From contig JANYAS010000079.1 in NCBI GenBank assembly GCA_025361205.1, positions 488 to 64,487 on the forward strand: a DNA stretch of 64,000 nucleotides, written 5' to 3'. Shown here piece by piece: positions 8,784-61,521 of the stretch (position 1 is the stretch's first letter; every line of letters begins with the position of its first letter). Position numbers and translations under genes: made by a program. The DNA comes from Holophagaceae bacterium (GTDB lineage Bacteria > Acidobacteriota > Holophagae > Holophagales > Holophagaceae). Below the pieces are notes generated by a model that searched no databases, was not told where the DNA came from, and saw nothing but the letters and a program-made list of their open reading frames with translations.

Positions 8784-9575
8784 ATGACGCAGTCCTTGGC
8801 TGGCAAGGTGGCGCTGGTGACCGCGGCCAGTCGGGGCCTGGGGCGGGCCTCGGCGGAGGCCCTGGCCAGGGCCGGCTGTGACCTGGTGATCTGCAGCCGC
8901 GACCGGGCCTCAGTGGACCGCGCCGCGGAGGAGATTCGCCGCGCCACTGGGCGGGCGGTGCTCTCGGTAGTGGCAGACCTCAGTGACGCCGAGGCGATTC
9001 AGAAGGTGCTGGATGCCGCCATGGTGGCCCATGGCCACGTGGACGTGCTGGTGTCCAACACAGGCGGGCCCCAACCTGGGCCCTTCATGGGCTTTGACGA
9101 TACTGCCTGGCAGGGGGCCTTCGATGCCCTGCTCATGCCCGCCGTGCGCCTGGCTCGGGGCGTGGTGCCCGGCATGCAGGCCCAGGGCTGGGGGCGCATC
9201 CTGTTCATCACTTCCAGCGCCGTAAAACAACCCATCCCCGCGCTGGTGCTTTCGAATTCCTTGCGCGCCGCCGTGACCGCCATGGCCAAGACCCTGGCGG
9301 GCCACGTGGCGAAGGATGGCATCACCGTGAACTGCGTGGCCCCGGGCCGCATCCTCACGGACCGCGTTCGGTTCCTCGATGGCGAGGCCGCCAAGGCCAG
9401 CGGCCGCCCCTTGGAAGACCTTCAGGCGGAACTGGCCACTCGAATTCCCGTGGGGCGCTATGGTGAACCACGCGAGTTCGGCGAGGCCGTGGCCTTCCTC
9501 GCCAGTCCCGGCGCCGCCTACATCACCGGCAGCACGCTGGCGGTGGATGGCGGGGCGATCGGCTCGCTGCTGTAG
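8784..9575 (+). CDS. SDR family oxidoreductase (FabG-like)
   Basis: VALVTAASRGLG, LVSNTGGP, LSNSLRA, ITVNCVAPG. Confidence 0.9.
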   Translation: MTQSLAGKVALVTAASRGLGRASAEALARAGCDLVICSRDRASVDRAAEEIRRATGRAVLSVVADLSDAEAIQKVLDAAMVAHGHVDVLVSNTGGPQPGPFMGFDDTAWQGAFDALLMPAVRLARGVVPGMQAQGWGRILFITSSAVKQPIPALVLSNSLRAAVTAMAKTLAGHVAKDGITVNCVAPGRILTDRVRFLDGEAAKASGRPLEDLQAELATRIPVGRYGEPREFGEAVAFLASPGAAYITGSTLAVDGGAIGSLL

Positions 9576-9587
9576 GCTGCCTGGTTG

Positions 9588-10970
9588 CTAGAGGCTCTTG
9601 ATGGCCGCGATCTCCTGGGGGTTCAGGAAGCGCCAGGTGCCGGGCTTGAGTAAGGGATCGGCCAGGGGCCCGAACTGCACGCGACGCAGCTTGCTGACGG
9701 GATGGCCCACCGCGGCGAACATGCGGCGGATCTGCAGGTTCTTGCCCTCGGTGAGGGTTACCTTCAGCCAGGGGTTGTCGCCCTTTTCCGCGACTTCGAC
9801 ATGGCAGGGTTTCAGGCGTCGCCCGCTGAGGATGAAGCCTTCCTGAAACTCCTTGATCAACTCCGGGCTGGGGTTGCGATGCACCTTCACCAGGTAGACC
9901 TTGGGGATCTCGTGCTCGGGGCCCATGAGCACCTGAGCCAGGGCACCGTCGTTGGTCATGAGCAGCAGGCCCTCGGAGTTGAAGTCGAGGCGGCCCACGG
10001 GGTAGATGCGGGCGGGCACGTCATGCAGGAGGGCCATCACCGTGGGCCGGCCCCGGTCGTCCTTCACGGTGGTGACGTAGCCCTTGGGCTTGTTCATGAG
10101 GATGTAGACCGGCGCTTCGCGTTCGATGGGCTCGAAGTTCACGGTGATCTCATCCTTGCGCGGATCAGCGAGGGTGCCCAGTTCGGTGACGGTCACGCCG
10201 TTCACCTGCACGCGACCGGAGAGGATGATCTCCTCGCAGGCCCGGCGGCTGGCCACGCCCGCGGCGGCGAGAATCTTCTGCAGGCGTTCCTGCCCGGCGC
10301 TCTTGGTGCGGGGCGCGGACTTTTTGGGGGCGACGGCCTTCGGAACGGCGACCGGCTTCCCGGCCGAACGGGGTCGCAGGGGGGTGCTGGCAGCCGGGCG
10401 GGCACCCGGGCGTCTCACGGGACGGACGGTGACGTCCGCGTCCGGACGGGGGCCCGAGCGCCGCACGGGGCGGACCATGGCATCCGCCGCGGGACGGGAG
10501 CCAGCGGGTCGCGCAGGGCGGGCCGTAGCATCCGACGTTGAGCGGGAGCGGGAACGCTCCACCTGGCCGGAGGAAGGGGCCGAAGCCTCACGCAGACTCA
10601 GGGGTCGCGCGGGGCGGGCAGGGGCGTCCGAAGTCGAGCGGGAAGTCGGTCGTCGGGTGGGACGGTCGCTGGCCTCCCCCGTCCGGCGGGGACGGGAGCG
10701 TTCCACGGGACGGGCGGAGGGGGCCGAGGTCTCGCGCAGACTCAGGGGTCGCGCGGGGCGGGCGGGGGCATCCGGGGTGGTGCGGGAGCCGGGGCGTCGC
10801 GCCGGCGGGCGTTCGGTCGCGTCCGGAGCCGTGCGAGTGTCTGAGCGTCGTGCCGGGCGGGCCGGGGCGTCTGCATCCCGGCGGGTCCTGGGGCGTCCAG
10901 CAGGACTGGCGGCCGAGGTCTTCTTCGGGGCGGGCACGGTTCTCGACCCCTTAGGGGTGAACTTTCGCAT
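9588..10970 (-). CDS. rluB: 23S rRNA pseudouridine synthase (RluB-type) with ~220-aa repetitive N-terminal extension
   Basis: S4 domain ERLQKILAAAGVASRRACEE; catalytic YPVGRLDFNSEGLLL; LTEGKNLQIRRMF. Confidence 0.9.
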   Translation of the reverse strand: MRKFTPKGSRTVPAPKKTSAASPAGRPRTRRDADAPARPARRSDTRTAPDATERPPARRPGSRTTPDAPARPARPLSLRETSAPSARPVERSRPRRTGEASDRPTRRPTSRSTSDAPARPARPLSLREASAPSSGQVERSRSRSTSDATARPARPAGSRPAADAMVRPVRRSGPRPDADVTVRPVRRPGARPAASTPLRPRSAGKPVAVPKAVAPKKSAPRTKSAGQERLQKILAAAGVASRRACEEIILSGRVQVNGVTVTELGTLADPRKDEITVNFEPIEREAPVYILMNKPKGYVTTVKDDRGRPTVMALLHDVPARIYPVGRLDFNSEGLLLMTNDGALAQVLMGPEHEIPKVYLVKVHRNPSPELIKEFQEGFILSGRRLKPCHVEVAEKGDNPWLKVTLTEGKNLQIRRMFAAVGHPVSKLRRVQFGPLADPLLKPGTWRFLNPQEIAAIKSL

Positions 10971-11024
10971 GGCGTCTCCTTCGGCGTCTCCCGACGCGGA
11001 AGCCTCATTCTATCAGGTCACTTG

Positions 11025-11594
11025 TCAGGCCACCGGGGTTTGCGTGGCCCGCATGAAGTAGTGGATGCCCGACGCCAGCGCCAAGGTGGCCACCGCCCAG
11101 TACATCTCCGGCAGGAGGGGGTCCATCCAGGGCCGGTAGCCGATGGCGTTGAACAGCAGCCCGAGGGAAATGGCGATCAATTGCATGGCCGTGCTGAGTT
11201 TCCCGAGGAGGCTCGGGCGGAACTTGGCGTTGGTCATGTGATCGGCCGACGCGATGGAATAGAAAGAGATCACCAGGTCCCTCATGACGGCCAGGATGGC
11301 CACCCACACCGGGATGGGGGCGGTCATGCCCTCGGTGCGCCAGGCCATGAGGACGAAGGCCGTGGTCATCAGCAGTTTGTCAGCGGCGGGATCCAGGATG
11401 GCGCCCAGGTCTGAGCTCTGATTGAAGGTCCTGGCGATGAGGCCGTCCAGCAGGTCGGTGAACCCGGCGGCGGCGAACAGGATGCACGCCTGCCAGTGGT
11501 GGCCGTACCAGAGCGCGATGGCGAAAAAGGGGATTGCCAGGATCCGCAGCAGGGTCAGTGCGTTGGGGAGGGTGAGTTGGCTGGATGGATGCAT
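11025..11594 (-). CDS. CDP-alcohol phosphatidyltransferase (PgsA/cardiolipin synthase type)
   Basis: LPNALTLLRI; DLLDGLIAR...LGAILDPAADK signature. Confidence 0.9.
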   Translation of the reverse strand: MHPSSQLTLPNALTLLRILAIPFFAIALWYGHHWQACILFAAAGFTDLLDGLIARTFNQSSDLGAILDPAADKLLMTTAFVLMAWRTEGMTAPIPVWVAILAVMRDLVISFYSIASADHMTNAKFRPSLLGKLSTAMQLIAISLGLLFNAIGYRPWMDPLLPEMYWAVATLALASGIHYFMRATQTPVA

Positions 11595-45408: not shown

Positions 45409-45861
45409 TCATGACCCGCTAAAATCGACTTCGTTGGGAAGCTCATCCTTGTCGGAATCTTTCTGATAGGGGAAGTGCTCGGCCAATCGCTCGCCCAACA
45501 GGGTGATACCTCGCTCAAGCCCTTCGGTGTAATTCAACCGACTGAAATGGTCGGAGAGGCAGGCGACGAGGTCGTTCCAGAAGGCCTGCCCCACCTTGGC
45601 GTGGATGCCTTCGTCCCCGACGACAGCAAAGCGTTTCCGGCTGGGGACCAGGAAGATCAGGATTCCATTGCGATCCTTGGTGGCCTCCATGCCCATGCGG
45701 CGGAAGGCCTTCTGGGCGGTCTTCTGGACATCGCCCACGAAGAAGGGGGCGACGGAAATCCGGATCTCGCCGGAAGTGCTGATTTCGGCCGCCTGGATGG
45801 CACGGACGATTCGTGCTTCATCCAAGTGCTCCCTCAGGCTTTTCTGTGTCATTCCCCACAT
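45409..45861 (-). CDS. TPM domain protein
   Basis: AIQAAEISTSGEIRISV...RNGILIFLV...GDEGIHAKVG...NELP. Confidence 0.85.
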   Translation of the reverse strand: MWGMTQKSLREHLDEARIVRAIQAAEISTSGEIRISVAPFFVGDVQKTAQKAFRRMGMEATKDRNGILIFLVPSRKRFAVVGDEGIHAKVGQAFWNDLVACLSDHFSRLNYTEGLERGITLLGERLAEHFPYQKDSDKDELPNEVDFSGS

Positions 45862-45878
45862 GGAGAATCCCCCTTGTC

Positions 45879-46601
45879 TCACCATGATCCAGAGGCCCCA
45901 CCACCACCGGACCTGCCGCCGCCGCCCGACCATCCGCCGCCGCCGGAACCGCCGCCGCCTCTCCCTCCCGACATGAGGCTGAATAACAGCCCGATGGCCA
46001 GGCTCGGATTCGTGACGATCAGTACCAGCAATCCCAGCGCCATGAAGCCCAGGAGAATCTTTGTGCCGAGGCCCATGGGAGGGCTGCGGGGATGGGAAGA
46101 CGCGTCTTGGCCTCCTGGGGCGCGGGTCTCTCCTCCCAGGGTGCCCAGGATGCGATCCACTCCTGCTGTTGCGGCGCCATCCCAATCGCCCGACTGAAGC
46201 TTCGGCACGATGGCTTCCGACAGGATGCGGGAAGCGATGAGATCCGGCATTTGTCCTTCCAGTCCGTACCCCACCTCAAGGCGGAGCTTGTGGTCCTGGG
46301 TCATGAGGAAGAGCACCAAGCCGTCGTCCAGACCCTTGCGCCCCACCTTCCAAGCAGCAAAGGTGCGCACCGCCCAGTCTTCAATGGGAACGCCCCCGGT
46401 GCTTTCGCCGATCCAGACCAGTACCTGATGCCCCGTCGTCTTTTCGTAGGCGGCCAGACGTCGGTCCAGCGCCACACGCGTTTCGAGGGAGAGTACGTGC
46501 GGTCCATCGGTCACCCATCGCTGGGGTGGGGGCACGGCCGTCTGAGCCCTCAGACCAGACTGGAGCAGGAGCCACAGCAGAAGGGCGACAAATTTGGGCA
46601 T
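45879..46601 (-). CDS. TPM domain protein (YgcG-like) with Gly-rich tail
   Basis: WVTDGPHVLS, WKVGRKGLDDGLV, RLEVGYGLEG, GGGRSGGGGASGSW. Confidence 0.88.
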   Translation of the reverse strand: MPKFVALLLWLLLQSGLRAQTAVPPPQRWVTDGPHVLSLETRVALDRRLAAYEKTTGHQVLVWIGESTGGVPIEDWAVRTFAAWKVGRKGLDDGLVLFLMTQDHKLRLEVGYGLEGQMPDLIASRILSEAIVPKLQSGDWDGAATAGVDRILGTLGGETRAPGGQDASSHPRSPPMGLGTKILLGFMALGLLVLIVTNPSLAIGLLFSLMSGGRGGGGSGGGGWSGGGGRSGGGGASGSW

Positions 46602-46603
46602 GT

Positions 46604-47215
46604 TCAGAACTTGACTTTGGGAGCCTGTTCAGCCCCGGCCTGGGCTTTGAAGTAGGTCTTCTCCTTGAACCGATCGCCAAAGAAGGAAGCGATGAGCATG
46701 GTCGGGAAGCTGTTGCGCTTGGTGTTGAAAGCCTGGGCCGCCTCGTTGAAGCGCATCCGCTCCACGGCAATGCGATTCTCAGTGCCCTCCAACTGGACCT
46801 GGAGATCCCTGAAATTCTGGGTGGCCTTCAGGTCGGGGTATTTTTCCACCACCACCATTAGGCGGGAGAGGGCTGATCCGAGTCCCTGTTGTGCCTCCTG
46901 GAATCGCGCCATGGCAGCCGGGTCCTGGGTGGGCTTCACCCCAGCCGTCACTTGACCGACCTTGGCTCGCGCTTCCGTAACGGCGGTGAAGGTGTCCTTC
47001 TCGAAGGCTGCGGCGCCCTTGACGGTCTCCACCAAGTTTGGTACCAGGTCCAGGCGGCGCTGATAGACATTCTCGACTTGGCCCCATTTGGCCTCAACGG
47101 CCTGATTCAGACTGTTCAAGGAGTTGTAGGAACCCACAGTGGCCAAGCCCAGAAAGAGCACGACCAGTAGGAATAGTCCCCCACAACCCAAGGCAATCTT
47201 GCTTCCAGTTCCCAT
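46604..47215 (-). CDS. lemA: LemA family protein
   Basis: YQRRLDLVPNLVETVKG, YPDLKATQNF, LEGTENRIAVER; ATG 47215 behind GGAGG. Confidence 0.93.
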   Translation of the reverse strand: MGTGSKIALGCGGLFLLVVLFLGLATVGSYNSLNSLNQAVEAKWGQVENVYQRRLDLVPNLVETVKGAAAFEKDTFTAVTEARAKVGQVTAGVKPTQDPAAMARFQEAQQGLGSALSRLMVVVEKYPDLKATQNFRDLQVQLEGTENRIAVERMRFNEAAQAFNTKRNSFPTMLIASFFGDRFKEKTYFKAQAGAEQAPKVKF

Positions 47216-47532
47216 GGACCCTCCTTGGTCTTCAGTGTAAGGATGATGGCCTTGGTTGGAGCAAGAAACCAAAAAAGGAATGGAAAGCACGAATAGAAGT
47301 CAAACCGTTGGTTCGACCAAGCCAATGCCCTTGATGGGCATCAACGAGAATATCTCCCGATGCTCTGGTGGACCTTTGGGCATTCGAGGCCTCGTACACC
47401 TTGGCGAACGACGCGACGAACTTGACGCCCAGGATCTTCCCGACGGATGACTTCGATCTTCAAACTGATGGAATCAGTAGCTCATTCTGATTGAGCCCCC
47501 CATCGATGGAGAAGGGTAATTAATCATAAATA

Positions 47533-47575
47533 TAATGCAATAAATAACATAATCATTGGATCAAATATTGCATTA
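47533..47575. promoter_or_regulatory. AT-rich inverted repeat, candidate operator of the SOD-encapsulin operon
   Basis: TAATGCAATA-N23-TATTGCATTA, with ATAATCATT (Fur-box half) inside. Confidence 0.45.
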
Positions 47576-47629
47576 AGGCCTCCACGTAGATAGCGCATGG
47601 CCCCGATCATCTACCAAGGGAGGAAGTTC

Positions 47630-48244
47630 ATGGCCTACGAGCCCAAGAATTACGATCACCTGAAGGGGGGCGCACTGGATGGATTCAGTGATAGCCAGCT
47701 GGACTTGCACTTCACCCTCTACAAGGGCTACGTGGCGAAGCTCAACGAGATTGAAGAAAAACTGGCTGTGGCCATCAACACCAAGCCCAACTATTCCTTC
47801 AACGAATACAGCGAGTTAAAGCGGCGGGAGGCCGTGGCTTTCAATGGATCCTTCCTCCACGAACGCTACTTCGAGAACCTGGGGAAAGATGCCGCCATCA
47901 GCTCTGGCCTCCAGAAGGCTTTGGACGGGCAGGGGGGCAAGGTCAACATCTTGGCCGATCTAAAGGCCGCAGCCCTCAGCGGCCCGGGCTGGGCACTGCT
48001 CACCCTCAATCGGCGGGACGGTAGGCTCCACTCCTATTTTGTGGCGGAGCATCACATAGGCATGCCTATCGACCAGGATCTGCTCCTGGTCCTGGATAGC
48101 TGGGAGCACGCCTTCATGGTGGATTTCGGCATCAAACGCCCAGCCTACATCGACGCTTTCTTCACCAACATCAAGTGGAGCGAAGTGTCCAAGCGCTGGG
48201 TCGGTTCGAGAACCGGCGGAAGAGAAGGTGATCGCCATGAGTAG
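47630..48244 (+). CDS. sod: Fe/Mn superoxide dismutase family protein (ChrC-like HxxLYxGYV type)
   Basis: LHFTLYKGYV, FNGSFLHERYFENL, LDSWEHAFMVDFG metal ligands. Confidence 0.88.
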   Translation: MAYEPKNYDHLKGGALDGFSDSQLDLHFTLYKGYVAKLNEIEEKLAVAINTKPNYSFNEYSELKRREAVAFNGSFLHERYFENLGKDAAISSGLQKALDGQGGKVNILADLKAAALSGPGWALLTLNRRDGRLHSYFVAEHHIGMPIDQDLLLVLDSWEHAFMVDFGIKRPAYIDAFFTNIKWSEVSKRWVGSRTGGREGDRHE

Positions 48245-48575
48245 CGGATTCATTGAACCTGGGCTTTCTAGCCAAGCATCGAACATCCACCGGGCCCTCA
48301 CCAGCCTGCAGGAGGAACTAGAAGCCATCGACTACTACCACCAGCGGGTGGATGTGTCGGATGACGAGTCCCTAAAGGCCGTTCTGGCCCACAACCGCGA
48401 TGATGAAATGGAACACGCGATGATGTTGATGGAATGGCTTCGCCGCGCCATGCCTGAATTCGATGTCCAGATGAAAAAGCTCCTGTTCACATCTGGTGAC
48501 ATCACCGAACCGGCGGACGGAGTCGAACCCCAAGTGGCAAGTGCAATTGGGCTGGGGCTGGGAAACCTGAAATGA
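48237..48575 (+). CDS. Encapsulin-associated ferritin-like protein (Flp/EncFtn cargo)
   Basis: SLQEELEAIDYYHQR...HNRDDEMEHAMMLMEWLRR; C-terminal cargo-loading peptide GLGLGNLK. Confidence 0.92.
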   Translation: MSSGFIEPGLSSQASNIHRALTSLQEELEAIDYYHQRVDVSDDESLKAVLAHNRDDEMEHAMMLMEWLRRAMPEFDVQMKKLLFTSGDITEPADGVEPQVASAIGLGLGNLK

Positions 48576-48604
48576 ATGGGGCACTGGCCCGGGGAGATAC
48601 GGTC

Positions 48605-49426
48605 ATGAAAGACATACTCAGGCGCGACATGGCACCCATCGTGGAGGGGGCCTGGAAGGAAATCGATCTGCAAAGTGCTCGCATCCTCAAGGGAAACCTT
48701 TCTGGGCGGAAACTGGTGGATTTTTCTGGACCTCACGGTTGGCAGTTCGCGGCCCTCAACCTCGGGAGGCTGGAGGTGGGACCCGGGGAGGGCAAGGACG
48801 GAGTGACCTGGGGGCTGCATAAGGTCCAACCTCTGGTAGAAGTTCGAGTCCCTTTTACCCTGGGTCTCTGGGACCTAGATGACGTGGCGCGGGGGGCGAA
48901 GAACCCGAACCTGGACGCATTGAAGGAGGCTGCGCGCAAGGTGGCAATCTTCGAGGAAACGGCCATTTATCGGGGGTTGGGAGGGGCGGGCATCCTGGGA
49001 ATGCTCGAAGGCTCCGGTCATGCTCCCGTGCCTTTGGGCCCCGACCTGAGCAAGCTCACCGAGTCATTGGAATTGGCCCTGCTTGCGATTCAGGAGGCCG
49101 AGATCGGTGGACCCTTTGCGCTAGTGCTAGGAACGCTGCCGTATAAGTGGCTGATGGTTGGGGACCCGAATGCCTACCCGCTGCGAAACCGGGTCGAAGC
49201 CATGTTTTCAGGCGGAATCCATTGGAGTCCTGTTCTGGAAGGAGGGGCTGTGCTATCGCTCCGAGGTGGAGATTTCGAGATGACTGTGGGCCAAGATCTG
49301 AGCATCGGATACAAAATGCACGACGCGAGAAATGTCGAGTTGTACTTTACCGAATCATTCACCTTCCACGTGCTTGAACCCGCGGCAGCCGTGGAGTTGA
49401 AACCGCAGGATCTCTTGAAACAATAG
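48605..49426 (+). CDS. Family 1 encapsulin shell protein
   Basis: LRRDMAPI..AWKEID, GRKLVDFSGPHGW, GGDFEMTVGQDLSIGY, LYFTESFTF. Confidence 0.95.
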   Translation: MKDILRRDMAPIVEGAWKEIDLQSARILKGNLSGRKLVDFSGPHGWQFAALNLGRLEVGPGEGKDGVTWGLHKVQPLVEVRVPFTLGLWDLDDVARGAKNPNLDALKEAARKVAIFEETAIYRGLGGAGILGMLEGSGHAPVPLGPDLSKLTESLELALLAIQEAEIGGPFALVLGTLPYKWLMVGDPNAYPLRNRVEAMFSGGIHWSPVLEGGAVLSLRGGDFEMTVGQDLSIGYKMHDARNVELYFTESFTFHVLEPAAAVELKPQDLLKQ

Positions 49427-49466
49427 GTCCAGCCTTGCGGACCCGATCTTCGAGAAGGACCGCCCC

Positions 49467-51029
49467 ATGAGTGAACATGCCGACACCAGCGGGTTGGACT
49501 TCGCGAAGGATGGAATCGCCTTTTCAGAGCTCGAAGACGGAAAACCGATCGCCGGGCAGGCGAACGGTGACGCGCTGCTCATCATACGTCGGGGTGAGGC
49601 CTGCTTCGCGGTCGGCGCCACTTGCACGCATTACGGTGGACCCCTCGTCGACGGCATCGTCGAGGGTGATACGATCCGTTGCCCATGGCATCATGCTCGC
49701 TTCGCGCTCGCGACCGGCGAAGCTAACGGACCTCCAGCGCTGGACGCGATTCCCTGCTTCCAGGTTGAGCGGAGGGGTGACCGGGTTTTCGTGCTCGGCC
49801 GTGCGAAGCTGGTAGGGAACGCACCTGGTGGCAACCCGCAGCGATCGCTATCTGGCGGTCCGCAATCGATCGCGATCGTGGGAGGAGGTCCCGCAGGGAC
49901 CGCGGCGGCAGAAATGTTGCGGCGCGAAGGCTACGAAGGGCCCATCACGTTCTTCGCGCCAGAAGCGTCATCACCGGTGGACCGGCCCAACCTATCAAAG
50001 GACTATCTTGCCGGGAGTGCAGCCGAAGAATTAATCCCACTGAGACCGCCGGAACACTTCGCCGAACACCGCATCGATCTGCGCCGCGAGACCGTCCTGG
50101 CACTGGAAGGGAAATCGCTGGTCCTCAAGGGCGGTTCGGAGGCGTTCGACGCGATCTTGCTCGCAACGGGTGCGGCGCCGGTCCGTTTAGAGATACCGGG
50201 TGCGGAGCATGCCCACTTGCTTCGCACGCTCGCCGATAGCCACGCAATCATTGCGAATGCGAAAGGACCTATTCTCGTGATCGGCTCCTCGTTCATTGGC
50301 CTCGAGGTAGCAGCGGCATTGATCGCGAGAGGCCTCGAAGTACACGTGGTCGGGCGGGACAAGGTGTTGCTTGAACCAATTCTAGGTCCCGAATTTGGCG
50401 CATTTGTGCAAGAGGTTCACGAGAAGAAGGGGGTTCACTTCCATCTCGGTACCTCCCCAAAGGAGATCGACGCGTATGGGGTGGTGCTCGAGAACGGGCG
50501 CGTCGACGGTAAGCTCGTCATTATGGGCGTCGGTGTCCGCCCCGAGATTGCGCTCGCAGAAAAGGCCGGCATTGCCATCGACCGGGGAATCGTGGTCGAC
50601 GATCAATTCCGCACGAGTGCCCCCGGTGTCTGGGCCGCAGGCGACATTGCCCGCTTCCCCTATCCTTTTACTGAGGAGCGCGTCCGCATCGAGCACTGGG
50701 TTGTGGCCGAGCAGCAGGGACAAGCTGCTGCGCGCAGCATGCTTGGGAAGGGAACCCGCTTCGATCGCGTTCCCTTCTTCTGGAGCGCGCACTACGATGT
50801 CAGCATCGGTTACGTCGGTCATGCCGGGACTTGGGATCGAATCGATATCGCGGGTAATTTCGCACGGCGCGATGTGGCTGTCGCGTACCGCCGTGGCGGA
50901 CAAACCCTTGCGGTGGCCGCCATCGGACGTGACGAACTGTTACTCCGGGCCGAAGCAGCGATCGAACGGGGAGATGAAGCGACACTCACGCGATTGATCC
51001 CACCCAGCGCCACCGATGGAAGACCATGA
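49467..51029 (+). CDS. Rieske [2Fe-2S] + FAD/NAD(P)H oxidoreductase fusion
   Basis: CTHYGGPL...CPWH Rieske ligands; IVGGGPAG, ILLATGA, VIGSSFIGLE, WAAGDIA, VPFFWS. Confidence 0.92.
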   Translation: MSEHADTSGLDFAKDGIAFSELEDGKPIAGQANGDALLIIRRGEACFAVGATCTHYGGPLVDGIVEGDTIRCPWHHARFALATGEANGPPALDAIPCFQVERRGDRVFVLGRAKLVGNAPGGNPQRSLSGGPQSIAIVGGGPAGTAAAEMLRREGYEGPITFFAPEASSPVDRPNLSKDYLAGSAAEELIPLRPPEHFAEHRIDLRRETVLALEGKSLVLKGGSEAFDAILLATGAAPVRLEIPGAEHAHLLRTLADSHAIIANAKGPILVIGSSFIGLEVAAALIARGLEVHVVGRDKVLLEPILGPEFGAFVQEVHEKKGVHFHLGTSPKEIDAYGVVLENGRVDGKLVIMGVGVRPEIALAEKAGIAIDRGIVVDDQFRTSAPGVWAAGDIARFPYPFTEERVRIEHWVVAEQQGQAAARSMLGKGTRFDRVPFFWSAHYDVSIGYVGHAGTWDRIDIAGNFARRDVAVAYRRGGQTLAVAAIGRDELLLRAEAAIERGDEATLTRLIPPSATDGRP

Positions 51030-51796
51030 GCGACGTTCCCTGCATCAAGACTCTGACCGCAGTGCCGACGCTGGATGACCTCGTCGCGCGTGATCGTGAT
51101 CATGACTGCGAGGGCTTTGGCAAACATCATATCTGCGTAAAGGTGGAGGCGGTCGCCGACCTACCCACACGCTTTGGTCACTTCCGCATCGTCGCCTTCT
51201 ACAACAATCGGGATGGAAAGGAGCATGTCGCGATCGTTCATGGTGACGTACTCGGCGGTCAAGAGGTCGTTACACGCCTGCACTCCGAGTGCCTGACTGG
51301 CGACGCGCTCGGATCCCTCCGATGCGACTGCCGCGACCAACTCGGTGTCGCGCTCACCCGCATCGCCCAGGAGCCCTGCGGTGTGCTCCTTTATCTGCGC
51401 CAGGAAGGTCGCGGTATCGGACTCTTGAACAAGATCCGAGCCTATGCCCTTCAGGATGGTGGGCTCGATACCGTAGATGCGAATCTGGCCCTGGGATTTC
51501 GCGATGACGAGCGCGACTACGCCATTGCTGCGCACATGCTCGCGAGTCTTACCGTGAAATCGATCCGCCTCCTCACCAATAACCCACGCAAGGTCGAGGA
51601 GCTTGTGCGCTATGGGATCGAGGTCCGTGAGCGCCTTCCGCATGTCATTCCGGCAAACGAATTCAACCTTTTCTACCTCGAAACCAAGGCTCATCGCTCG
51701 GGGCACTTCATCGATTTCGAGGGCAAGCCGCATGTCGCGGAACAGGACGAGCCCATCGTGGTCACCCCATCGACAAACTCGCCGGTCCAACCATGA
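51026..51796 (+). CDS. ribA: GTP cyclohydrolase II, second copy
   Basis: TRLHSECLTGDALGSLRCDCRDQL, YLRQEGRGIGL, LLTNNPRK; ATGA overlap with upstream gene. Confidence 0.93.
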   Translation: MSDVPCIKTLTAVPTLDDLVARDRDHDCEGFGKHHICVKVEAVADLPTRFGHFRIVAFYNNRDGKEHVAIVHGDVLGGQEVVTRLHSECLTGDALGSLRCDCRDQLGVALTRIAQEPCGVLLYLRQEGRGIGLLNKIRAYALQDGGLDTVDANLALGFRDDERDYAIAAHMLASLTVKSIRLLTNNPRKVEELVRYGIEVRERLPHVIPANEFNLFYLETKAHRSGHFIDFEGKPHVAEQDEPIVVTPSTNSPVQP

Positions 51797-51839
51797 CGTT
51801 TGCCGAGTTGATGCGGAGAACCGCAGTGCGGGGGATTCC

Positions 51840-52150
51840 ATGAAGGAACCTGCCTACGCGCCCTCGGGCCATTTCAGTTGGCCGAAACGGCTCACCACCG
51901 ATAGTGAGGGGGCCACACGCTTCCACGCGGCCCTGTTCAACCGGGAAGCCGTGGACCTCGACAGGCCCACGGGCAGCTACACCAGCTTCAGGTTGGATGA
52001 CCTGGACGGGGCGGCCGCCTATCAGGCGGGGCCTGATCAGGTCGCACCATCCCACTGGAAAGTCTACGTGGCCGTCTGCAGCGCCGACAAATCGGCTGCG
52101 AAAGCCGCGGCCGATCCGCGATCCTGCAGGGCCGGTGTTCGCGATCATCA
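51840..52150 (+). pseudogene. Degenerate VOC/glyoxalase-family remnant
   Basis: YAPSGHFSWPKRLTTDSEGATRFHAALF.REAVD...SYTSFRLD...PSHWKVYVAV.SADKSAAKA; second half missing. Confidence 0.6.
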
Positions 52151-52195
52151 AGTTGCTGGAGAGTTGAGACTGTTCGCGGGGCTGGGGAGGAAAAA

Positions 52196-53006
52196 ATGCG
52201 ATTGCCGTCCCGGTGGTTCGGGGTGGACAAGGGACGCTATTCTCTGCGTGTCACTTCTCGGGATTCTGCAGTTCTGGCGGAGTGTCTTGGGGGCAGCACC
52301 GGTCCCGGTCCGCTTCACCGAGGGAACAGTCCGCGGCTTTCTCGTGCTCACCGACACCGGCGGGGGACGGATTGCATCGGGGGACTTCTCCCAGGTTAGC
52401 GGGGCGGGTGAGATCCAGACCCACACCGTTTTTCACTTCAAGGATGGGTCTGAGCAGGGCGAGACGGTGGTCTTCACCCAGAAGCCCACCTTTGTGTTGA
52501 AGAGCTATCACCTGGTCCAAAAGGGCCCCGCGTTCCGTGATGACATGGACGTCATGCTGGTGCGGGCCACCGGACATTACCTCGTCAAAACCAAGGCGCA
52601 CAAGGATGGGCAGGAGAAGGTGGTGGAGGGCAGGATCGATCTGCCGCTCGATGTCTATAACGGCATGATCCCAGTGGTCACGAAGAACCTGGTCAAGGGG
52701 GCCAAGGAGACGGTTCACATGGTGGGATTTACACCTAAACCCAGAGTGATCGGCTTGGAGATAAACCCTTCAGGCGAGGAGAAACTGCAGATCGGCGATC
52801 TCAAAAAGACCGCGCTGCACTACGTACTGAAACCGAAGCTAGGCTTGCTCGAAATCCCCGCTACACTGTTCGGGCGTATGCCGCCTGACAACCATATCTG
52901 GATCCTCGCGGGCGATGCCCCGGCTTTTGTCAAGTTCGAGGGACCGCTCAGCGTCGAAGGGCCCATCTGGCGCATTGAACTTACCAGCCCGATATGGCCG
53001 AAGTAG
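52196..53006 (+). CDS. Hypothetical exported protein, apparent frameshift near 52220
   Basis: ATG 52196 behind GGGGAGGA; removing one G from GGGG joins MRLPSRWFG to WTRDAILCVSLLGIL..AAPVPVRFTEG. Confidence 0.55.
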
Positions 53007-53076
53007 CCGGCGGCCCTATCGTCGCGCGAGGCGGGTACTGTCCCCAAATGAAGGTGTCGAGTCAGGAGGAGCAGGG

Positions 53077-54201
53077 ATGACCGACCTTCGGTTGCAACGA
53101 ATCGGGCTCGTCATGAAGCCGGAGGCGGGCAACCCGATGGAGACCGAAGGCATCTTGAATCCGGCCGCCGTCCGTGGGCCTGACGGTCACCTGTACCTGT
53201 TCCCACGGTTGGTCGCAAAGGGCAACTACTCGCGTATCGGTATTGCGCGAGTGCGATTCGATGAAGCCGGCGATCCCATCGGCGCCGATCGCCTTGGCAT
53301 CGCCCTTGAACCGGAGGCGGATTATGAACTGCGGCCTGGCGGAGGCGGTGGCTGTGAAGACCCGAGAATTACGTTTGTGGAACCGCTTCAGCGCTTTGTG
53401 ATGGCCTACACGGCCTTTTCCTCGAACGGCCCACGGATAGCGCTGGCCTTATCGAAGGATCTGTTCCACTGGGAACGGTTGGGTCTCGCGAGTTTCCATT
53501 CCTATGACTGCATCGAGTTTGAAGGCATCGACAACAAGGATGCCACTGTCTTCCCGGTTGCCATTCGCGATCCCGCCGGTAAACCCGCTCTGGCGATCCT
53601 CCACCGGCCCCTGTTTCCCGGTACTCGTCCCGAGGAGAAAGTGTGCCACCCGGTGTCTCGCAAAGCAGATCTGCAGATGGAAAGCATCTGGATTTCCTAC
53701 TGTCCGATCGACATGAATGACGCGCCTTACCACCTCGGGCATTTCACTTCGCATAACCGGTTAGCCCATCCGGTCGCAACCTGGGAGCGGCTCAAGATTG
53801 GCTGCGGCACTCCGCCCATCCTGACGCGACATGGTTGGCTGATCATCTACCATGGTGTGGGTGACACGACAGTGAAGAACCCGGAAGTCCTCGAGCTGCG
53901 CTATTCGGCGGGCTTGATGATCCTTTCCGACGAAAACCCCCGCCTCGTCCGATATCGTTCCCCCGAGCCGGTCTTGATACCTGGGTCGAGGCAAGAACTA
54001 CACGGATTTCATTCCAATATTGTATTTCCCACCGGCATCGATCGACGCGATGACCTGGGCAGTCCCGACCGTTTCGACGTCTACTTCGGGATGGGTGACA
54101 ACCGGATTGGTGCTGCCCGCCTGGACCTGCCGGCACATCTCTCACCCGAGGAGCACGCCGACATCCTCGGCCCAATCGACAATGGTTCTCGTTCAAGTTG
54201 A
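53077..54201 (+). CDS. GH130-like glycoside hydrolase/phosphorylase (DUF377)
   Basis: GILNPAAV, GCEDPRIT, DNKDATVFP, KIGCGTPPI, NIVFPTG. Confidence 0.85.
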   Translation: MTDLRLQRIGLVMKPEAGNPMETEGILNPAAVRGPDGHLYLFPRLVAKGNYSRIGIARVRFDEAGDPIGADRLGIALEPEADYELRPGGGGGCEDPRITFVEPLQRFVMAYTAFSSNGPRIALALSKDLFHWERLGLASFHSYDCIEFEGIDNKDATVFPVAIRDPAGKPALAILHRPLFPGTRPEEKVCHPVSRKADLQMESIWISYCPIDMNDAPYHLGHFTSHNRLAHPVATWERLKIGCGTPPILTRHGWLIIYHGVGDTTVKNPEVLELRYSAGLMILSDENPRLVRYRSPEPVLIPGSRQELHGFHSNIVFPTGIDRRDDLGSPDRFDVYFGMGDNRIGAARLDLPAHLSPEEHADILGPIDNGSRSS

Positions 54202-54433
54202 GGGGATGTCCCCTTCATTTTGATTTGGAACACTTAGCCAACTTAGGCAACCAGTTCAGTAAGGACTCTTGTTTTCTAGCTATACAGTTTGGCCTGGAAT
54301 CTGCTCAGGCCATGCACGGGAATCCTTATATGTTGTGAGGGTTTTCGCATCTGGAGGTCCCGTGATGCGGTCTGATTAGCCCTCCAACTCAATGCCAATG
54401 CTATGCCTAGAACTGAAGTCTAAGGGGGTTGCC

Positions 54434-55255
54434 ATGAGCACGATCACCACCCAGGACGGCACGCAGATCTATTTCAAGGATTGGGGCTCGGGTCCGCCCG
54501 TGGTCTTCAGTCACGGCTGGCCCCTCAATGCGGATGCCTGGGAGTCCCAGATGGTCTTCCTGGGTTCCCATGGCTATCGCTGCATCGCCCATGATCGCCG
54601 TGGCCACGGCCGGTCCAGCCAGCCCTGGAATGGCAATGACATGGACACCTATGCCGACGACCTGGCCGAACTGATCGATGCCCGGGATCTCAACGGCGCA
54701 ACCTTGATCGGCCACTCCACGGGCGGCGGGGAGGTAGCCCGCTACATCGGTCGCCACGGCGCCTCCCGGGTTGCCAAGGCCGTCTTGCTGGGTTCGGTGA
54801 CTCCGTTGATGCTGAAGACGGAGGCCAACCCCGGTGGGCTACCGATCAAAGTCTTTGATGACATCCGAGCGGGCGTCTTCGCCGACCGCTCGCAGTTCTT
54901 CAAGGACCTGACCACACCGTTTTACGGCGCCAACCGCCCGGGTTCCAAGGTCACGCAAGGCATGAGGGAGGCCTTCTGGCTCCAAGGCATGCAGGGCGGT
55001 CTCAAGGGCGAGCTCGATTGCATCAAGGCCTTCTCCGAAACGGATTTCACCGAGGACCTGAAGAAGATCGAGGTACCGACGCTGATCATCCACGGCAATG
55101 ACGATCAGATCGTGCCCATTGCAGCCTCGGCCCTGCCGTCGTCGCAACTCGTCAAGAAGGCGACGCTGAAAATCTATCCGGGTGGCCCACACGGTCTGGC
55201 GGAAACGCACAAGGACCAGCTCAACGCCGATTTGTTGGCCTTCCTTAAGGCTTGA
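54434..55255 (+). CDS. cpo: Alpha/beta hydrolase, non-heme chloroperoxidase/arylesterase type
   Basis: [37 protein letters not shown]. Confidence 0.9.
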
Positions 55256-55281
55256 GCACATACCCTATCCGGAGGTACACG

Positions 55282-55884
55282 ATGACTAAGATTCTCGTTC
55301 TTTACTTCAGCATGTATGGCCACACCGAGAACATGGCGAACGCGGTGGCAACAGGCGCGCGTACCATCGAAGGCACCGAAGTCACCGTCAAGCGCGTGCC
55401 CGATCTGGTGCCAGAAGACGTGGCACGCAAAGCTGGCGCCAAGCTCGACCAAGCAGCGCCGGTCGCCACAGTGGACGAGCTGCCGAACTACGATGCGATC
55501 ATCTTCGGCACCCCGACCCGATTCGGGAACATGTGCGCGCAGATGCGCAACTTCCTGGATCAGACCGGCGAGCTGTGGCTGAACGGCAACCTCATCGGAA
55601 AAGTAGGCAGCGTGTTTACGTCCACGGCCACCCAGCACGGCGGGCAGGAAACGACGATCACCTCGTTTCATACCACCCTGTTGCACCAGGGCATGCTCAT
55701 TGTCGGTGTCCCCTATTCCTGTAAGGAGCTGATGAACATGAGTGAGGTGTCCGGTGGATCGCCCTACGGTGCCGGGACCCTGGCAGGAGGCGATGGCCTT
55801 CGTCAGCCCTCGGAGAATGAGCTAGCCATTGCTCATTTCCAGGGGGAGCATGTGGCCAGGATCGCCAAAAAACAGTCCGCATGA
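55282..55884 (+). CDS. wrbA: NAD(P)H:quinone oxidoreductase type IV
   Basis: [39 protein letters not shown]. Confidence 0.95.
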
Positions 55885-58047: not shown

Positions 58048-58508
58048 AGGTCGCCATCGGCTGTGATCATGGCGGCTTCGTCCTCAAGACCGCCCTCCAG
58101 GAAATGCTGCTGAGGTCGGGGCATCAGCTGCTGGACTGCGGCGCCCACAGCTTTGATCCCGAGGATGATTACCCTGATTTCACCCAGGCCGTCGGTGAGG
58201 CCATCCAGCGTCATGAGGCCGACCGGGGCCTCATCATTTGCGGCAGCGGGGTGGGCGCCTCGGTGGCCGCCAACAAGCTGCGGGGCATCCGGGCCGGGCT
58301 CTGCCATGACACCTATTCGGCCCATCAGGGGGTGGAGGACGACAACATCAACGTGCTCTGCCTAGGAGGATGGGTGGTGGGTTCCGTCCTTGCCGAGGAG
58401 ATCGTGATCGCATTCCTGTCGGCGCGGTTCAGTGGGGCGGAACGGCACCTGCGCCGGCTCGGTAAGGTAGCGCACCTGGAGCAGGGCGGGGTCTCACCCT
58501 TGAAATGA
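58044..58508 (+). CDS. rpiB: Ribose-5-phosphate isomerase B
   Basis: [28 protein letters not shown]. Confidence 0.95.
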
Positions 58509-58564
58509 CCGCTGGAAGGCTCCCCCATTTTGGGATGGCAAGGACGGTTGAAGGAGGCAACGCG

Positions 58565-59992
58565 ATGGGCGATCCCGGAACGCCTTACTGTGAAGTTGGC
58601 ATGGTGGGTCTCGGAGTGATGGGTCGGAACCTGCTCCTCAATATCGCCGACCACAGCTTTCCGGTGGCGGGCTATGACCAGGACCCGGCCAAGGTGGAGG
58701 CGCTCCGCCAGGAGGCGGGGACGCGTGATGTCCAGGGGGTCGGTGACCTGAAGTCGCTGGTGGCCCTGCTCCGCCCGCCCCGGGCCCTCATCCTGCTGGT
58801 CCCGGCCGGTGCGCCGGTGGATGCGGTGAGCGGGGAACTGCGTGGGCTATTGGAAGACGGCGACCTCATCATCGATTCCGGAAATTCCCATTTCAAGGAT
58901 ACCGATCGCCGGGAAGACGAGTTGAAGCGAAGCCGGATCGGCTTTCTCGGCGTGGGTATTTCCGGTGGAGAACGGGGCGCGCGGGAAGGGGCGAGCATCA
59001 TGGCGGGCGGTACTGTGGCCGCCTACGACCGGATCCGGCCGGTGTTGGAGGCGGTCGCCGCGAAGGTCGGCGGCGAACCCTGTGTGGCCCACCTCGGGCC
59101 CGGCTCCACGGGCCACTTCGTGAAGATGGTCCACAACGGCATCGAGTACGGCCTCATCCAACTGCTGGCGGAATCCTACGACCTGATGAAGCGGGGCCTC
59201 GGTCTGGACAACGCTGCGATGCAGGAACAGTACGAGACCTGGAACCGGGGTGAACTCAGTGGCTACCTGGTGGAGATCACCGCGCGCATCCTTGGCCGCC
59301 CCGATGACCTGACCGAGCATCGGCTCATCGACGAGATCCTTCCCGTGGCCCGGCAGAAGGGCACCGGGATGTGGACCTCCCAGATCGCCATGGACCTGCA
59401 GACGCCGATCCCCACCATCGATAGCGCGGTCGCCATGCGCAACCTTTCAGCCTTGGAGGAGGAACGGAACCGCGTCGGCCCGTCCCTGGCCCGGCCCATC
59501 GAGCCCTTCAGGGGCGACCGGGATGCCTTCCTGTCCCAATTGCAGCAGGCCCTCCACGCCGGCATGATCCTCACCTACGCCCAGGGGTTCGCCATACTGC
59601 CCGTGGCTTCCCGTGAGTACCACTACACCATCGATCTGGCCGCCGTGGCGCGCATCTGGCGCGGCGGCTGCATCATTCGTGCGGCGCTGCTGGAGCCCGT
59701 CCGGGCCGCTTTTGAGCGGGAGCCTGGGCTGCCCAATCTGCTGCTGGATCCCACCCTGGCCGAGCACCTCCAGGCCAGCGAGGCCGGGCTGCGGGAGGTG
59801 GTGGCCACGGCGATCCGGATGGGGCTGCCCCTCCCCGGGCTAGCCTCGGCCCTGACCTATCTGGACAGCTACCGCAGCCCCTGGCTTCCGGCCAACCTCA
59901 TCCAGGCCCAGCGGGACTATTTCGGTGCCCACACGTATGAGCGCAGCGACCGGCCAGGGACCTTTCACACCGAATGGGAGCAGCCGCGATGA
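58565..59992 (+). CDS. gndA: NADP-dependent 6-phosphogluconate dehydrogenase
   Basis: GLGVMGRNL, IDSGNS, GHFVKMVHNGIEY, QKGTG, QAQRDYFGAHTY. Confidence 0.96.
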   Translation: MGDPGTPYCEVGMVGLGVMGRNLLLNIADHSFPVAGYDQDPAKVEALRQEAGTRDVQGVGDLKSLVALLRPPRALILLVPAGAPVDAVSGELRGLLEDGDLIIDSGNSHFKDTDRREDELKRSRIGFLGVGISGGERGAREGASIMAGGTVAAYDRIRPVLEAVAAKVGGEPCVAHLGPGSTGHFVKMVHNGIEYGLIQLLAESYDLMKRGLGLDNAAMQEQYETWNRGELSGYLVEITARILGRPDDLTEHRLIDEILPVARQKGTGMWTSQIAMDLQTPIPTIDSAVAMRNLSALEEERNRVGPSLARPIEPFRGDRDAFLSQLQQALHAGMILTYAQGFAILPVASREYHYTIDLAAVARIWRGGCIIRAALLEPVRAAFEREPGLPNLLLDPTLAEHLQASEAGLREVVATAIRMGLPLPGLASALTYLDSYRSPWLPANLIQAQRDYFGAHTYERSDRPGTFHTEWEQPR

Positions 59993-61521
59993 AGGCCAAG
60001 GACCGGCCTGAACCCACCCTGTTCGTGCTCTTCGGCGGCACCGGCGACTTGGCCTGGCGGAAACTGGTGCCGGCCCTCTTCGATCTCTATATCGATGGGC
60101 ACCTGCCGAACCCCTTCGGGATTCTCGCCGTGGGCCGAGGGGACTTTGACGATGCCAGCCTGAGCCGGCATTACCGGGAAGGGGTCGACCGGCATTCCCG
60201 GCGCGGGATCGCCCGGGACGAGGACTGGGGGGCCTTTGCTGCTCAGATCCACTTCCTTCGGGGTGATCCCGGCAGCCAGGAAATCTATGCTTCGCTGGCG
60301 GAGGCGTGCGCGCGGTTGGATCAGGAATGGCAGGTGAAGGCCCAACGCATTTTCTACATGGCCACGCCGCCCGACCTCTTCGGGGTGATCCCCAAATATT
60401 TGAAGGAGGCGGGCCTGGCCCAGGACTTGGAGCGCGCCCGGATCGTGGTGGAAAAGCCCATCGGTTGCGACCTTGCCTCCGCCCTGAGCCTCAACGCCAC
60501 CCTGGGGGACTGTTGCCAGGAAGCCCAGATCTTCCGCATCGATCACTATCTCGGCAAGGAGACCGTGCAGAACATCCTGGCTTTCCGGTTCGCCAATCCC
60601 ATGTTCGAACCCATCTGGAACCGTCGCTACGTGGACTACGTGACCATCACTGTGGCCGAGGCCGTGGGTGTGGCGCACCGCGGGGGCTACTACGAAAAGG
60701 CCGGGGCCCTGCGCGACATGGTCCAGAACCACCTGATGCAGATCCTCTGCCTGGTGGCGATGGAGCCCATGGTTTCGTTCCAGGCGGACGAGATCCGCAA
60801 CAAGAAGGTGGATGTCCTTCACGCGATCCGGCCCATACCCCGAGACGAAGTGAGCCAGTACGCCATCCGCGGTCAGTATAACGAGGGTTGGATGGACGGT
60901 CAGAAGGTCCCCGGCTACAGGGAGGAGGCTGGGGTCGGTCACCATTCCCAGACAGAGACCTTCGTGGCCCTGAAACTGCTGGTGGACAACTGGCGCTGGA
61001 AGGATGTGCCCTTCTACCTACGCACGGGCAAACGGATGCCCCGCCAGGTCTCAGAAGTGGCCATCCAGTTCAGGGCGGTGCCGCACCAGTGCTTCCCGGC
61101 CGAAGCCACCCAGGACTGGCAGCCATCGCGGCTCATTATGCTGATCCAGCCCGAGCAGGGCATCATCCTGCGCTTCCAGGCCAAGCAGCCCGGCCCCAAG
61201 ATGCATCTGCGCACCTCCGAAATGCGCTTTGATTACAGCCAGGCCTTCGCCAATCCCTCACCCGATCCCTACGAGACCCTGCTCTGGGACGTGATGAAGG
61301 GAGATACCACCTTGTTCATGCGCCCCGATCAGGTGGAGGCAGCCTGGCAGGTCCTGGCGCCCATCCTGGACGTCTGGTCCTCGGCCACCCCCAACGATTT
61401 CCCCAACTACCCCGCCGGCACCTGGGGACCCGAAGCCACCCAGGGCCTGCTCGCCAAACAGGGCCATCGCTGGCCATTGCCGGTGGATCTGGCCGGTTCG
61501 CCCGACAAGGGCCAGCCATGA
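59989..61521 (+). CDS. zwf: Glucose-6-phosphate 1-dehydrogenase
   Basis: FGGTGDLA.RKL.P, RIDHYLGKE, RDMVQNHL, GVPFY-like KDVPFYLRTGK. Confidence 0.96.
   Translation: MKAKDRPEPTLFVLFGGTGDLAWRKLVPALFDLYIDGHLPNPFGILAVGRGDFDDASLSRHYREGVDRHSRRGIARDEDWGAFAAQIHFLRGDPGSQEIYASLAEACARLDQEWQVKAQRIFYMATPPDLFGVIPKYLKEAGLAQDLERARIVVEKPIGCDLASALSLNATLGDCCQEAQIFRIDHYLGKETVQNILAFRFANPMFEPIWNRRYVDYVTITVAEAVGVAHRGGYYEKAGALRDMVQNHLMQILCLVAMEPMVSFQADEIRNKKVDVLHAIRPIPRDEVSQYAIRGQYNEGWMDGQKVPGYREEAGVGHHSQTETFVALKLLVDNWRWKDVPFYLRTGKRMPRQVSEVAIQFRAVPHQCFPAEATQDWQPSRLIMLIQPEQGIILRFQAKQPGPKMHLRTSEMRFDYSQAFANPSPDPYETLLWDVMKGDTTLFMRPDQVEAAWQVLAPILDVWSSATPNDFPNYPAGTWGPEATQGLLAKQGHRWPLPVDLAGSPDKGQP

Follow-up and report, generated by a model that had tools for sequence, protein, structure and literature searches.

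An EncFtn encapsulin operon with a superoxide dismutase gene and an adjoining reductase-RibA module in a Holophagaceae bacterium

We analysed a 64,000-nucleotide (nt) stretch of the Holophagaceae bacterium assembly GCA_025361205.1 (contig JANYAS010000079.1, positions 488 to 64,487), hereafter "the window", and concentrated on a group of genes at 47.6–51.8 kb which encodes an encapsulin nanocompartment and a flavin-linked reductase. Five genes lie on the + strand in the same orientation: an Fe/Mn-family superoxide dismutase (SOD; 47630..48244), an EncFtn cargo protein (48237..48575), a family-1 encapsulin shell (48605..49426), an AIF3-like Rieske/flavin adenine dinucleotide (FAD) reductase (49467..51029) and a monofunctional GTP cyclohydrolase II, which is a RibA paralog (51026..51796). 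These identities had been put forward in an earlier note on this DNA and were borne out by Pfam, curated models and structure matches. The note had also described the genes as joined by overlaps or by gaps of no more than 40 nt, which agrees with the shell–reductase spacer (49427..49466, + strand, 40 nt) and with the overlapping reading frames of SOD and EncFtn (8 nt) and of reductase and RibA (4 nt); EncFtn and shell, however, do not overlap, as 29 nt separate the EncFtn stop from the shell ATG.

The cargo and the shell were both able to be assigned with well-characterised models. EncFtn matches PF22277 at 6e-36 (122.6 bits, cutoff 27) and scores 124.4 bits with TIGR04535, just below the cutoff of 125. 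Its EELEA and DDEMEH (DEMEH) ferroxidase motifs align with the solved EncFtn structures, including those of Haliangium ochraceum and Rhodospirillum rubrum (1.4e-23 and 1.6e-23), and it ends in the C-terminal targeting peptide ...AIGLGLGNLK. The 273-residue shell matches NF041155 with 264 bits (cutoff 100) and PF04454 at 1.9e-76, and 23 solved family-1 shells match it at E ≤ 2.5e-51; the best solved structure by phmmer is that of H. ochraceum (7ODW, 2e-67), with Thermotoga maritima at 1e-58. Homologs of the shell begin MKDLLRR or MTDILRR, and its start was therefore placed at ATG 48605 (MKDILRR), 29 nt after EncFtn. The locus thus contains a shell recognised by the curated model and, adjacent to it, a cargo gene with a C-terminal targeting peptide, as defines a family-1 encapsulin. 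This peptide is found on EncFtn alone and is absent from SOD, reductase and RibA.

The shell segment EVRVPFTLGLW aligns with ELRATFTLDLW of T. maritima, so that R81 and W89 of the window's shell are the equivalents of the T. maritima residues R79 and W87; the alignment and the conservation of both flavin residues, as claimed in the earlier note, are therefore correct. The window's locus has much in common with T. maritima TM0785/TM0786 (3DKT, 7KQ5, 7MU1), including a family-1 shell of ~265–273 residues, EncFtn directly 5' of it with a targeting peptide, and both Trp87 and Arg79 in the shell. It differs in the SOD coupled on the 5' side, in the reductase-RibA pair fused on the 3' side and in its host, a mesophilic sediment member of the Holophagaceae. 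The H. ochraceum and R. rubrum systems (7ODW/7OE2, 5DA5) have the same decameric ferroxidase type of cargo, but where the window's shell has Trp at position W87, that of H. ochraceum has Thr. We know of no SOD or reductase partner described for either of these two EncFtn systems.

To place the cluster among its relatives we scanned one genome per species for similar shells, giving 80 related loci from Holophagaceae, Verrucomicrobiota, Planctomycetota, Bacteroidota, Myxococcota and other groups (loci from our comparisons are denoted by L and a number). EncFtn was directly 5' of the shell in all 77 loci having upstream sequence, and an EncFtn tail of the LG[IL]G.LK type was conserved across 77 loci. 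Neither the reductase nor RibA was found within 10 kb of the shell in any of the 80 loci, 66 of which have at least 2.5 kb of downstream sequence, and both were missing from the 16 informative Holophagaceae encapsulin loci among them. At E ≤ 1e-3 there were just two unrelated fragments, 5–7 kb off and on the opposite strand. Clustering of all flanking open reading frames (ORFs) at these loci gave no partner conserved across phyla besides EncFtn.

Within the Holophagaceae, the SOD-EncFtn-shell form of the operon is common, with an intact SOD ortholog immediately 5' of EncFtn in 9 loci. Neither superoxide dismutase nor riboflavin genes come up in the main text of a large census of encapsulins. 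The window's SOD is of the Aquifex type: its best solved structure is the Aquifex pyrophilus Fe-SOD 1COJ (6e-36, full-length alignment), and the His/His/Asp/His metal-ligand motifs (LH.., FLHE and DSWEH, aligned to 1COJ) are kept, while the Pfam match (Sod_Fe_C, 6e-17) is to the C-terminal domain only. A Shine-Dalgarno sequence, GGGAGGAAG, lies just before its ATG. Mesoterricola has a member of this SOD family on its own, after GTP cyclohydrolase I, and the stand-alone orthologs are 192 residues long and lack a C-terminal tail which the encapsulin-linked proteins have. We therefore regard this SOD as the ordinary enzyme of the clade, a frequent but dispensable operon partner and a non-cargo accessory; it carries no targeting peptide, as the tail is not conserved and is missing from the stand-alone orthologs. 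It is probably ancestral to the cassette and yet dispensable.

Several smaller observations concern this gene. Decayed copies were seen in L010 (a 49-residue remnant, 9472–9618), in L011 (internally deleted or truncated, 9215–9589) and in L009 (a premature stop at ~1390). The extra tail of the encapsulin-linked SODs (48205–48244 in the window, and in its orthologs) comprises 11–12 residues rich in Gly, Ser and charged residues, of no conserved sequence, and may be a by-product of the overlap with the EncFtn start or a flexible linker. In L060, a Methylomirabilota metagenome-assembled genome, an unrelated Fe/Mn SOD with 27% identity to the window's lies directly 3' of an EncFtn-encapsulin pair (10967–11467); this is a second association of SOD with the compartment and apparently arose independently of the Holophagaceae one.

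The reductase contains Rieske (1.4e-14), Pyr_redox_2 (6.5e-59) and Reductase_C (9.5e-9) domains, with the Rieske motif CTHYGGPL...CPWHHARF and the FAD-binding motif IVGGGPAG, and putidaredoxin reductase 1Q1R matches its residues 134–489 at 1e-51. This is the domain order of AIF3 (AIFM3)-like and 1Q1R-type proteins, an architecture which is widespread (> 8000 homologs); the subclade to which the window's protein belongs differs from other AIF3-like fusions in having a downstream RibA paralog. To our knowledge no acceptor is known for bacterial AIF3-like fusion proteins. We found no targeting peptide or shell-docking motif on the reductase, the N-terminus of which is the family-wide SGPD region and the C-terminus of which is not conserved.

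RibA was identified by TIGR00505 (247.7 bits, cutoff 205.85) and aligns with E. coli RibA at HSECLTGD...RCDC, which holds the Zn-binding Cys triad, and at LLYLRQEGR, which holds the catalytic Tyr. It has a conserved N-terminal extension of ~35 residues (51026–51130; PCIKTLT..PTLDDLV.RD.DH[DE]CEGFG..H[IV]CV, with conserved Cys and His) and a conserved C-terminal one (51700–51796; ID..GKPH..EQDDPV). The extensions also occur in L001 (9560–10312), L086 (4632–5387) and L125 (4460–5194), and neither is present in E. coli RibA; a minor role in metal binding or in regulation may be what they add. They are not targeting peptides, none having been found on RibA, and they are also present in copies which are not linked to an encapsulin.

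We then considered the cluster from the side of the reductase, using 80 metagenome loci and 12 look-ups of its closest orthologs, which together gave 13 distinct contexts (orthologs of ≥ 69% identity). No encapsulin was present at any of the 80 metagenome reductase loci, and 11 of the 12 looked-up contexts also lacked one, the sole exception being L172. Encapsulin was absent from 11 of the 13 distinct contexts of close orthologs, and in 7 of the 13 there was neither RibA nor encapsulin. RibA follows the reductase away from any encapsulin in L001, L086, L168 and L178, and the RibA-linked reductases form one clade. In L086 the pair is followed by NDH-2, with a gene carrying a flavin-reductase domain nearby, and in L178 it is flanked by RibD_C. 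The reductase-RibA pair is therefore a separable module in the Holophagaceae, with at least four relatives having it elsewhere. In L178, which has the ortholog closest to the L172 reductase (1223–2764), the called protein is 370 residues long and begins after the Rieske domain, with RibA following; the Rieske-coding region appears to have been disrupted or lost there.

The exception, L172, is an 8.2-kb contig from the European Nucleotide Archive which carries SOD, EncFtn, shell and reductase and runs collinearly with the window, with a nucleotide identity of 73% (reductase 75%, shell 77%, EncFtn 69%). Only 16 nt separate its shell stop from the TTG start of its reductase, and ~310 nt 3' of the reductase the N-terminal extension of RibA survives as a remnant (TKTLT..LDDLV..DHD.EGF). 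The gene order together with this remnant shows that the five-gene order existed in a second lineage, where RibA has since decayed. The earlier note had named a lack of recurrence in other genomes as grounds for refutation; the arrangement does recur, but once, with RibA decayed, and at none of the 80 encapsulin loci of the shell scan.

Comparison of the sequences 5' of the reductase start was informative with regard to how the arrangement arose. Stand-alone reductases (L001, L002, L085, L087 and L169) are preceded by a TAAAAT box, ~35–42 nt 5' of the ATG, and by an AAGGA ribosome-binding site (RBS) that is likewise conserved. In the fused reductases of the window and L172 the RBS is kept and the box is gone, which is the picture that a promoter-less operon fusion would be predicted to leave. 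The reductase ORF is intact in both fused lineages. In neighbour-joining trees the window's shell was sister to that of L005 (89%), a locus with neither SOD nor reductase, and the window's reductase was sister to that of L168 (96/100, and 200/200 in a second bootstrap), a locus without encapsulin. A clade of the window, L168 and L172 reductases was recovered in 41/200 replicates, the backbone being a polytomy. As the window and L172 are not sisters, a single origin of the fusion requires at least one later separation of the genes, and one fusion followed by one or more separations would fit the tree and the gene orders. The window's spacer has no homology to the longer shell tails of L005 and L007, and its similarity to the L172 junction is limited to a weak 10-mer (49/2000 shuffles).

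The shell–reductase junction was not an artefact of assembly: in four metagenome runs from sediment it was crossed, with even depth, by independent contigs (48168–54600; 46994–54484), and a chimera at this point was therefore rejected. A terminator inside the spacer was rejected as well, since the spacer, which ends in the reductase RBS (GAGAAGGA), folds no better than shuffled sequence (z = −0.44). Around 49.4–54.4 kb, a search for flanking direct or inverted repeats or mobile-element marks gave only short repeats at chance level. The shift in codon style which the earlier note had placed at ~49.45 kb was not found; GC content at third codon positions (GC3) is 0.65 in EncFtn, 0.66 in shell and reductase and 0.69 in RibA, and the increase in GC near this position is due to codon positions 1 and 2.

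Upstream of SOD, an AT-rich gap contains a sigma-70-like promoter candidate, TGGAGA-18-TATAAT (47507..47536, + strand, 10/12 match). Promoter-like sites of this kind are not more numerous in the region than expected by chance, and the location of this one suits an operon start. Also upstream of SOD is a conserved 14-nt element, GGATCAAATATTGC (47558..47571, + strand), which occurs once in the 64-kb window. In 12 of 18 Holophagaceae loci a single + strand copy of the element (pattern GGWTYRRWWNWTGC) precedes SOD or EncFtn, and loci without SOD carry it too; we regard it as a candidate for an operator or promoter element that serves the encapsulin operon. Positions of the element in other loci include L005 9469, L006 8089, L010 9324, L011 9141, L016 8957, L017 2583, L021 9593 and L030 8952.

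The explanation which we favour, with a probability of roughly 0.6, is that the window holds a canonical EncFtn compartment in a SOD-coupled operon and that a separate reductase-RibA module was fused without its promoter behind the shell gene, the link between the two being one of co-regulation. EncFtn decamers would be tethered by the C-terminal LGLGNLK inside a T. maritima-like shell, where they would oxidise Fe2+ and deposit the iron within the shell. SOD, commonly 5' of EncFtn and shell in the Holophagaceae and presumably translationally coupled to EncFtn here, would form with them an oxidative-stress and iron-detoxification operon driven from the AT-rich region at ~47.5 kb. The reductase-RibA module would have lost its own upstream region and been fused directly behind the shell, in the lineage of the window and in L172, and would most likely be transcribed by read-through from the SOD/encapsulin promoter. 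An extra reductase and additional flavin synthesis would in this way be switched on along with SOD and the iron cage. Co-transcription is suggested by the short gaps, the lack of a terminator at the junction and the lost promoter box.

Several points weigh against this explanation. None of the RNA runs queried contains the window's sequence, so that co-transcription is predicted from the DNA. A weak promoter-like site, TTGAAA-16-AACAAT (9/12 match), is present at 49397–49424, within 30 nt of the end of the shell gene, from where independent expression of the reductase could be driven. Matches to Fur and PerR boxes 5' of SOD were not significant (best 12/19 and 12/15), being no better in most loci than in a control of block-shuffled AT-rich sequence. 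The window and L172 reductases paired in 0/200 bootstraps, compared with 200/200 for the window and L168, and two independent fusions would imply a stronger functional tie than we have assigned. It should also be noted that the fusion is known from two sampled lineages only.

A rival explanation is that the neighbourhood is neutral: the pair landed behind the shell by one of the rearrangements that are frequent around this gene, relies for expression on a weak promoter of its own in the shell 3' end and has no regulation or function in common with the encapsulin, and L172 inherited the same accident. The surroundings of the reductase differ in almost every ortholog across the 13 contexts, the promoter-like site just described would serve such a gene, and the clade of window, L168 and L172 is not rejected; RibA was moreover lost in L172. 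The earlier note had seen no obvious terminator, and there is indeed none through RibA, but the string of co-oriented genes is not bounded by the five: it runs on past RibA to 54.2 kb through three further ORFs (an unannotated stretch, a conserved gene of ~252 codons and GH130), which include a glycoside phosphorylase and an unrelated conserved protein. The five genes are therefore not set apart by their tight co-orientation. Against a neutral origin, both junctions fall within ~16–43 nt of the reductase start and remove the ancestral TAAAAT box, the gap in L172 is too short for a promoter and none is evident in its shell 3' end, and the reductase has stayed intact in both lineages. We consider a wholly neutral arrangement unlikely, at about one chance in five.

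The earlier note had proposed a dedicated five-gene flavin and iron system, in which the Rieske/FAD protein is the redox partner of the compartment, passing electrons from NAD(P)H to the shell-bound flavin for the release of iron, with RibA boosting the supply of flavin. The route would run through FAD and the Rieske cluster to a flavin stacked on W89 (the equivalent of T. maritima W87), and the stored iron would be reduced. In T. maritima, flavin binding depends on Trp87, which is W90 in the tagged construct (PMC8610991, PMC8086157); the window's shell has the flavin-stacking residues of this subclass, with W87 and R79 both conserved, and may bind flavin as well. Trp at this position was found in 57 of the 80 EncFtn-type shells, matching the published frequency of 72% among close homologs (PMC8086157), and Arg79 in 80/80. 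The 57 Trp-bearing shells have no reductase nearby, however, and W87 is therefore a trait of the clade and not evidence for a reductase partner. In addition, the flavin-less W90E shell of T. maritima stored and released iron like the wild type (PMC8610991).

Precedents for such a partner do exist. An auxiliary electron-transfer factor has been postulated for Flp encapsulins by analogy with Bfd (PMC8610991). EncD of Myxococcus xanthus is a flavin-binding NAD(P)H ferric reductase and, alongside EncB and EncC, belongs with the shell EncA as its cargo (PMC11126975), so that a flavin-dependent NAD(P)H reductase genetically linked to an iron-storing encapsulin is common to both cases; EncD, however, is a 100-residue helical hairpin with a targeting peptide that resides inside the shell, whereas the window's reductase is a 520-residue Rieske/FAD protein that has no targeting peptide, shows no sequence relationship to EncD and is only rarely linked to an encapsulin. 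IMEF operons have Bfd-like [2Fe-2S] ferredoxins beside the encapsulin, which are proposed electron donors for iron release (PMC8346489, PMC8610991). These, like the Bfr-Bfd pair of Pseudomonas, have in common with the window a [2Fe-2S] protein gene beside an iron-storage compartment; the IMEF ferredoxins, in contrast, are small proteins that recur in many operons and have the targeting motif TVGSL at the N-terminus, whereas the cluster in the window is of the Rieske type, forms one protein with its reductase, has no targeting motif and occurs in two lineages only. EncD and the IMEF ferredoxins have targeting peptides and keep a conserved place in their operons, and the window's reductase, with an ordinary SGPD N-terminus and no docking motif, has neither.

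The recurrence of the fusion in L172, with its 16-nt gap and intact reductase, speaks for a dedicated partnership, and if the two fusions were independent, as the 0/200 pairing would allow, selection for the linkage would be implied. On the other side stand the 0/80 encapsulin loci with reductase or RibA nearby, the 11 of 13 reductase contexts without encapsulin and the decay of RibA in L172. The zwf and gnd genes, which the earlier note had named as a nearby source of NADPH, are indeed present in a tkt-rpiB-gnd-zwf block at 55.9–61.5 kb (gnd 58505–59992, zwf 59974–61521), but they lie beyond the terminator and four other genes. We therefore did not retain the dedicated system, which is improbable on these grounds. 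The same holds for its central step: direct electron transfer from the reductase to the shell flavin would be conceivable but is unsupported, and we give it a very low likelihood; any physical contact between the two proteins is likewise conjectural. It is similarly doubtful, at the same low level, that the window and L172 fusions are independent and reflect selection for co-expressing an NAD(P)H Rieske flavoprotein with a flavin-binding EncFtn encapsulin of the Trp87 type, with the reductase as the postulated auxiliary electron-transfer factor; if this were true, the locus would offer a natural system for studying reductive iron release via shell-bound flavin.

It is equally improbable that reductase and RibA work outside the cage in a flavin-based reduction of iron, with free flavins as reductants of Fe(III) or as shuttles and a common iron or redox response as the link to the encapsulin: the closest shells come from Geothrix and Holophaga, Geothrix fermentans, a relative of this Holophagaceae host, secretes riboflavin as an electron shuttle to Fe(III), many bacteria link their riboflavin genes to iron status (PMC6041382), and NDH-2 with the flavin-reductase-domain gene in L086 and the RibD_C flank in L178 point in this direction, but no gene for export or for a shuttle is present in the cluster, gene context is all that makes the link, and L172 has lost RibA.

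On the route of iron out of Flp/EncFtn encapsulins, and on the role of the shell flavin of the T. maritima type, the published mutant data are negative. The window's locus offers a concrete but weak candidate for a redox partner, since comparative genomics shows no general partnership. The firmer gains are descriptive: the SOD-EncFtn-shell form of the operon in the Holophagaceae, a conserved upstream element, a separable reductase-RibA module and a putative case of promoter-less operon fusion. The case also indicates that co-orientation in a single genome together with a conserved "signature" residue is insufficient to define a system.

The genes which follow RibA on the + strand begin with an unannotated stretch (51840–52240) which may be non-coding, as no homologs were found for the first ~130 codons of the long ORF there. 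The conserved protein of ~252 residues (~52248–53006), which has a hydrophobic N-terminus, lies within this long ORF (51603/51840–53006). Its family has 2148 representative homologs at E ≤ 1e-3 and 144 at ≤ 1e-30, the 2148 covering only residues ~135–388 of the long ORF, and no Pfam or NCBIfam match was obtained for it. A frameshifted glyoxalase-like gene considered at 51840–52170 was dropped, having neither Pfam nor NCBIfam support. The GH130 glycoside phosphorylase (53077–54201, co-oriented) is the last gene before an intrinsic terminator (54199..54217, + strand), which has a GC stem followed by UUUUGAUUU (−20.9 kcal/mol, z = −4.1); 0/200 shuffles equalled it, and it is the first convincing terminator after the SOD promoter.

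Beyond the terminator are an alpha/beta hydrolase (54392–55255) and WrbA, a flavin mononucleotide-dependent NAD(P)H:quinone oxidoreductase (55252–55884; NF002999, 349 bits). Both are recurrent neighbours of the encapsulin operon in the Holophagaceae (L005, L014–L017, L020, L021 and L030), and in L015 and L021 the hydrolase is ~100 nt 3' of the shell. As these genes adjoin the shell in relatives, the genes that separate shell from hydrolase in the window, ~5 kb in all, are additional. In L020, WrbA is directly 5' of EncFtn and co-oriented with it, at the position occupied by SOD in other loci, and WrbA recurs as a flavoprotein neighbour more often than the Rieske reductase does.

GC3 is 0.65–0.69 in EncFtn, shell, reductase, RibA and GH130 (48237–54201) and higher in the flanks, with 0.74 in WrbA, 0.79 in the hydrolase and 0.82 in tkt/gnd/zwf; SOD and the unannotated gene also have higher values (0.76 each). 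Expression level or origin could be the cause of the lower block. Contigs from several metagenome runs break at window positions 48167/48168 and 54600–54690, where the SOD 3' end read from loose ends is a variant one (RPEYINAFME). The samples apparently contain several related Holophagaceae strains, which have SOD and hydrolase in common and differ in what lies between them. Upstream of the region with the SOD promoter, the − strand carries a divergently oriented cluster (45409–47290) made up of a LemA gene and two genes for TPM-domain proteins.

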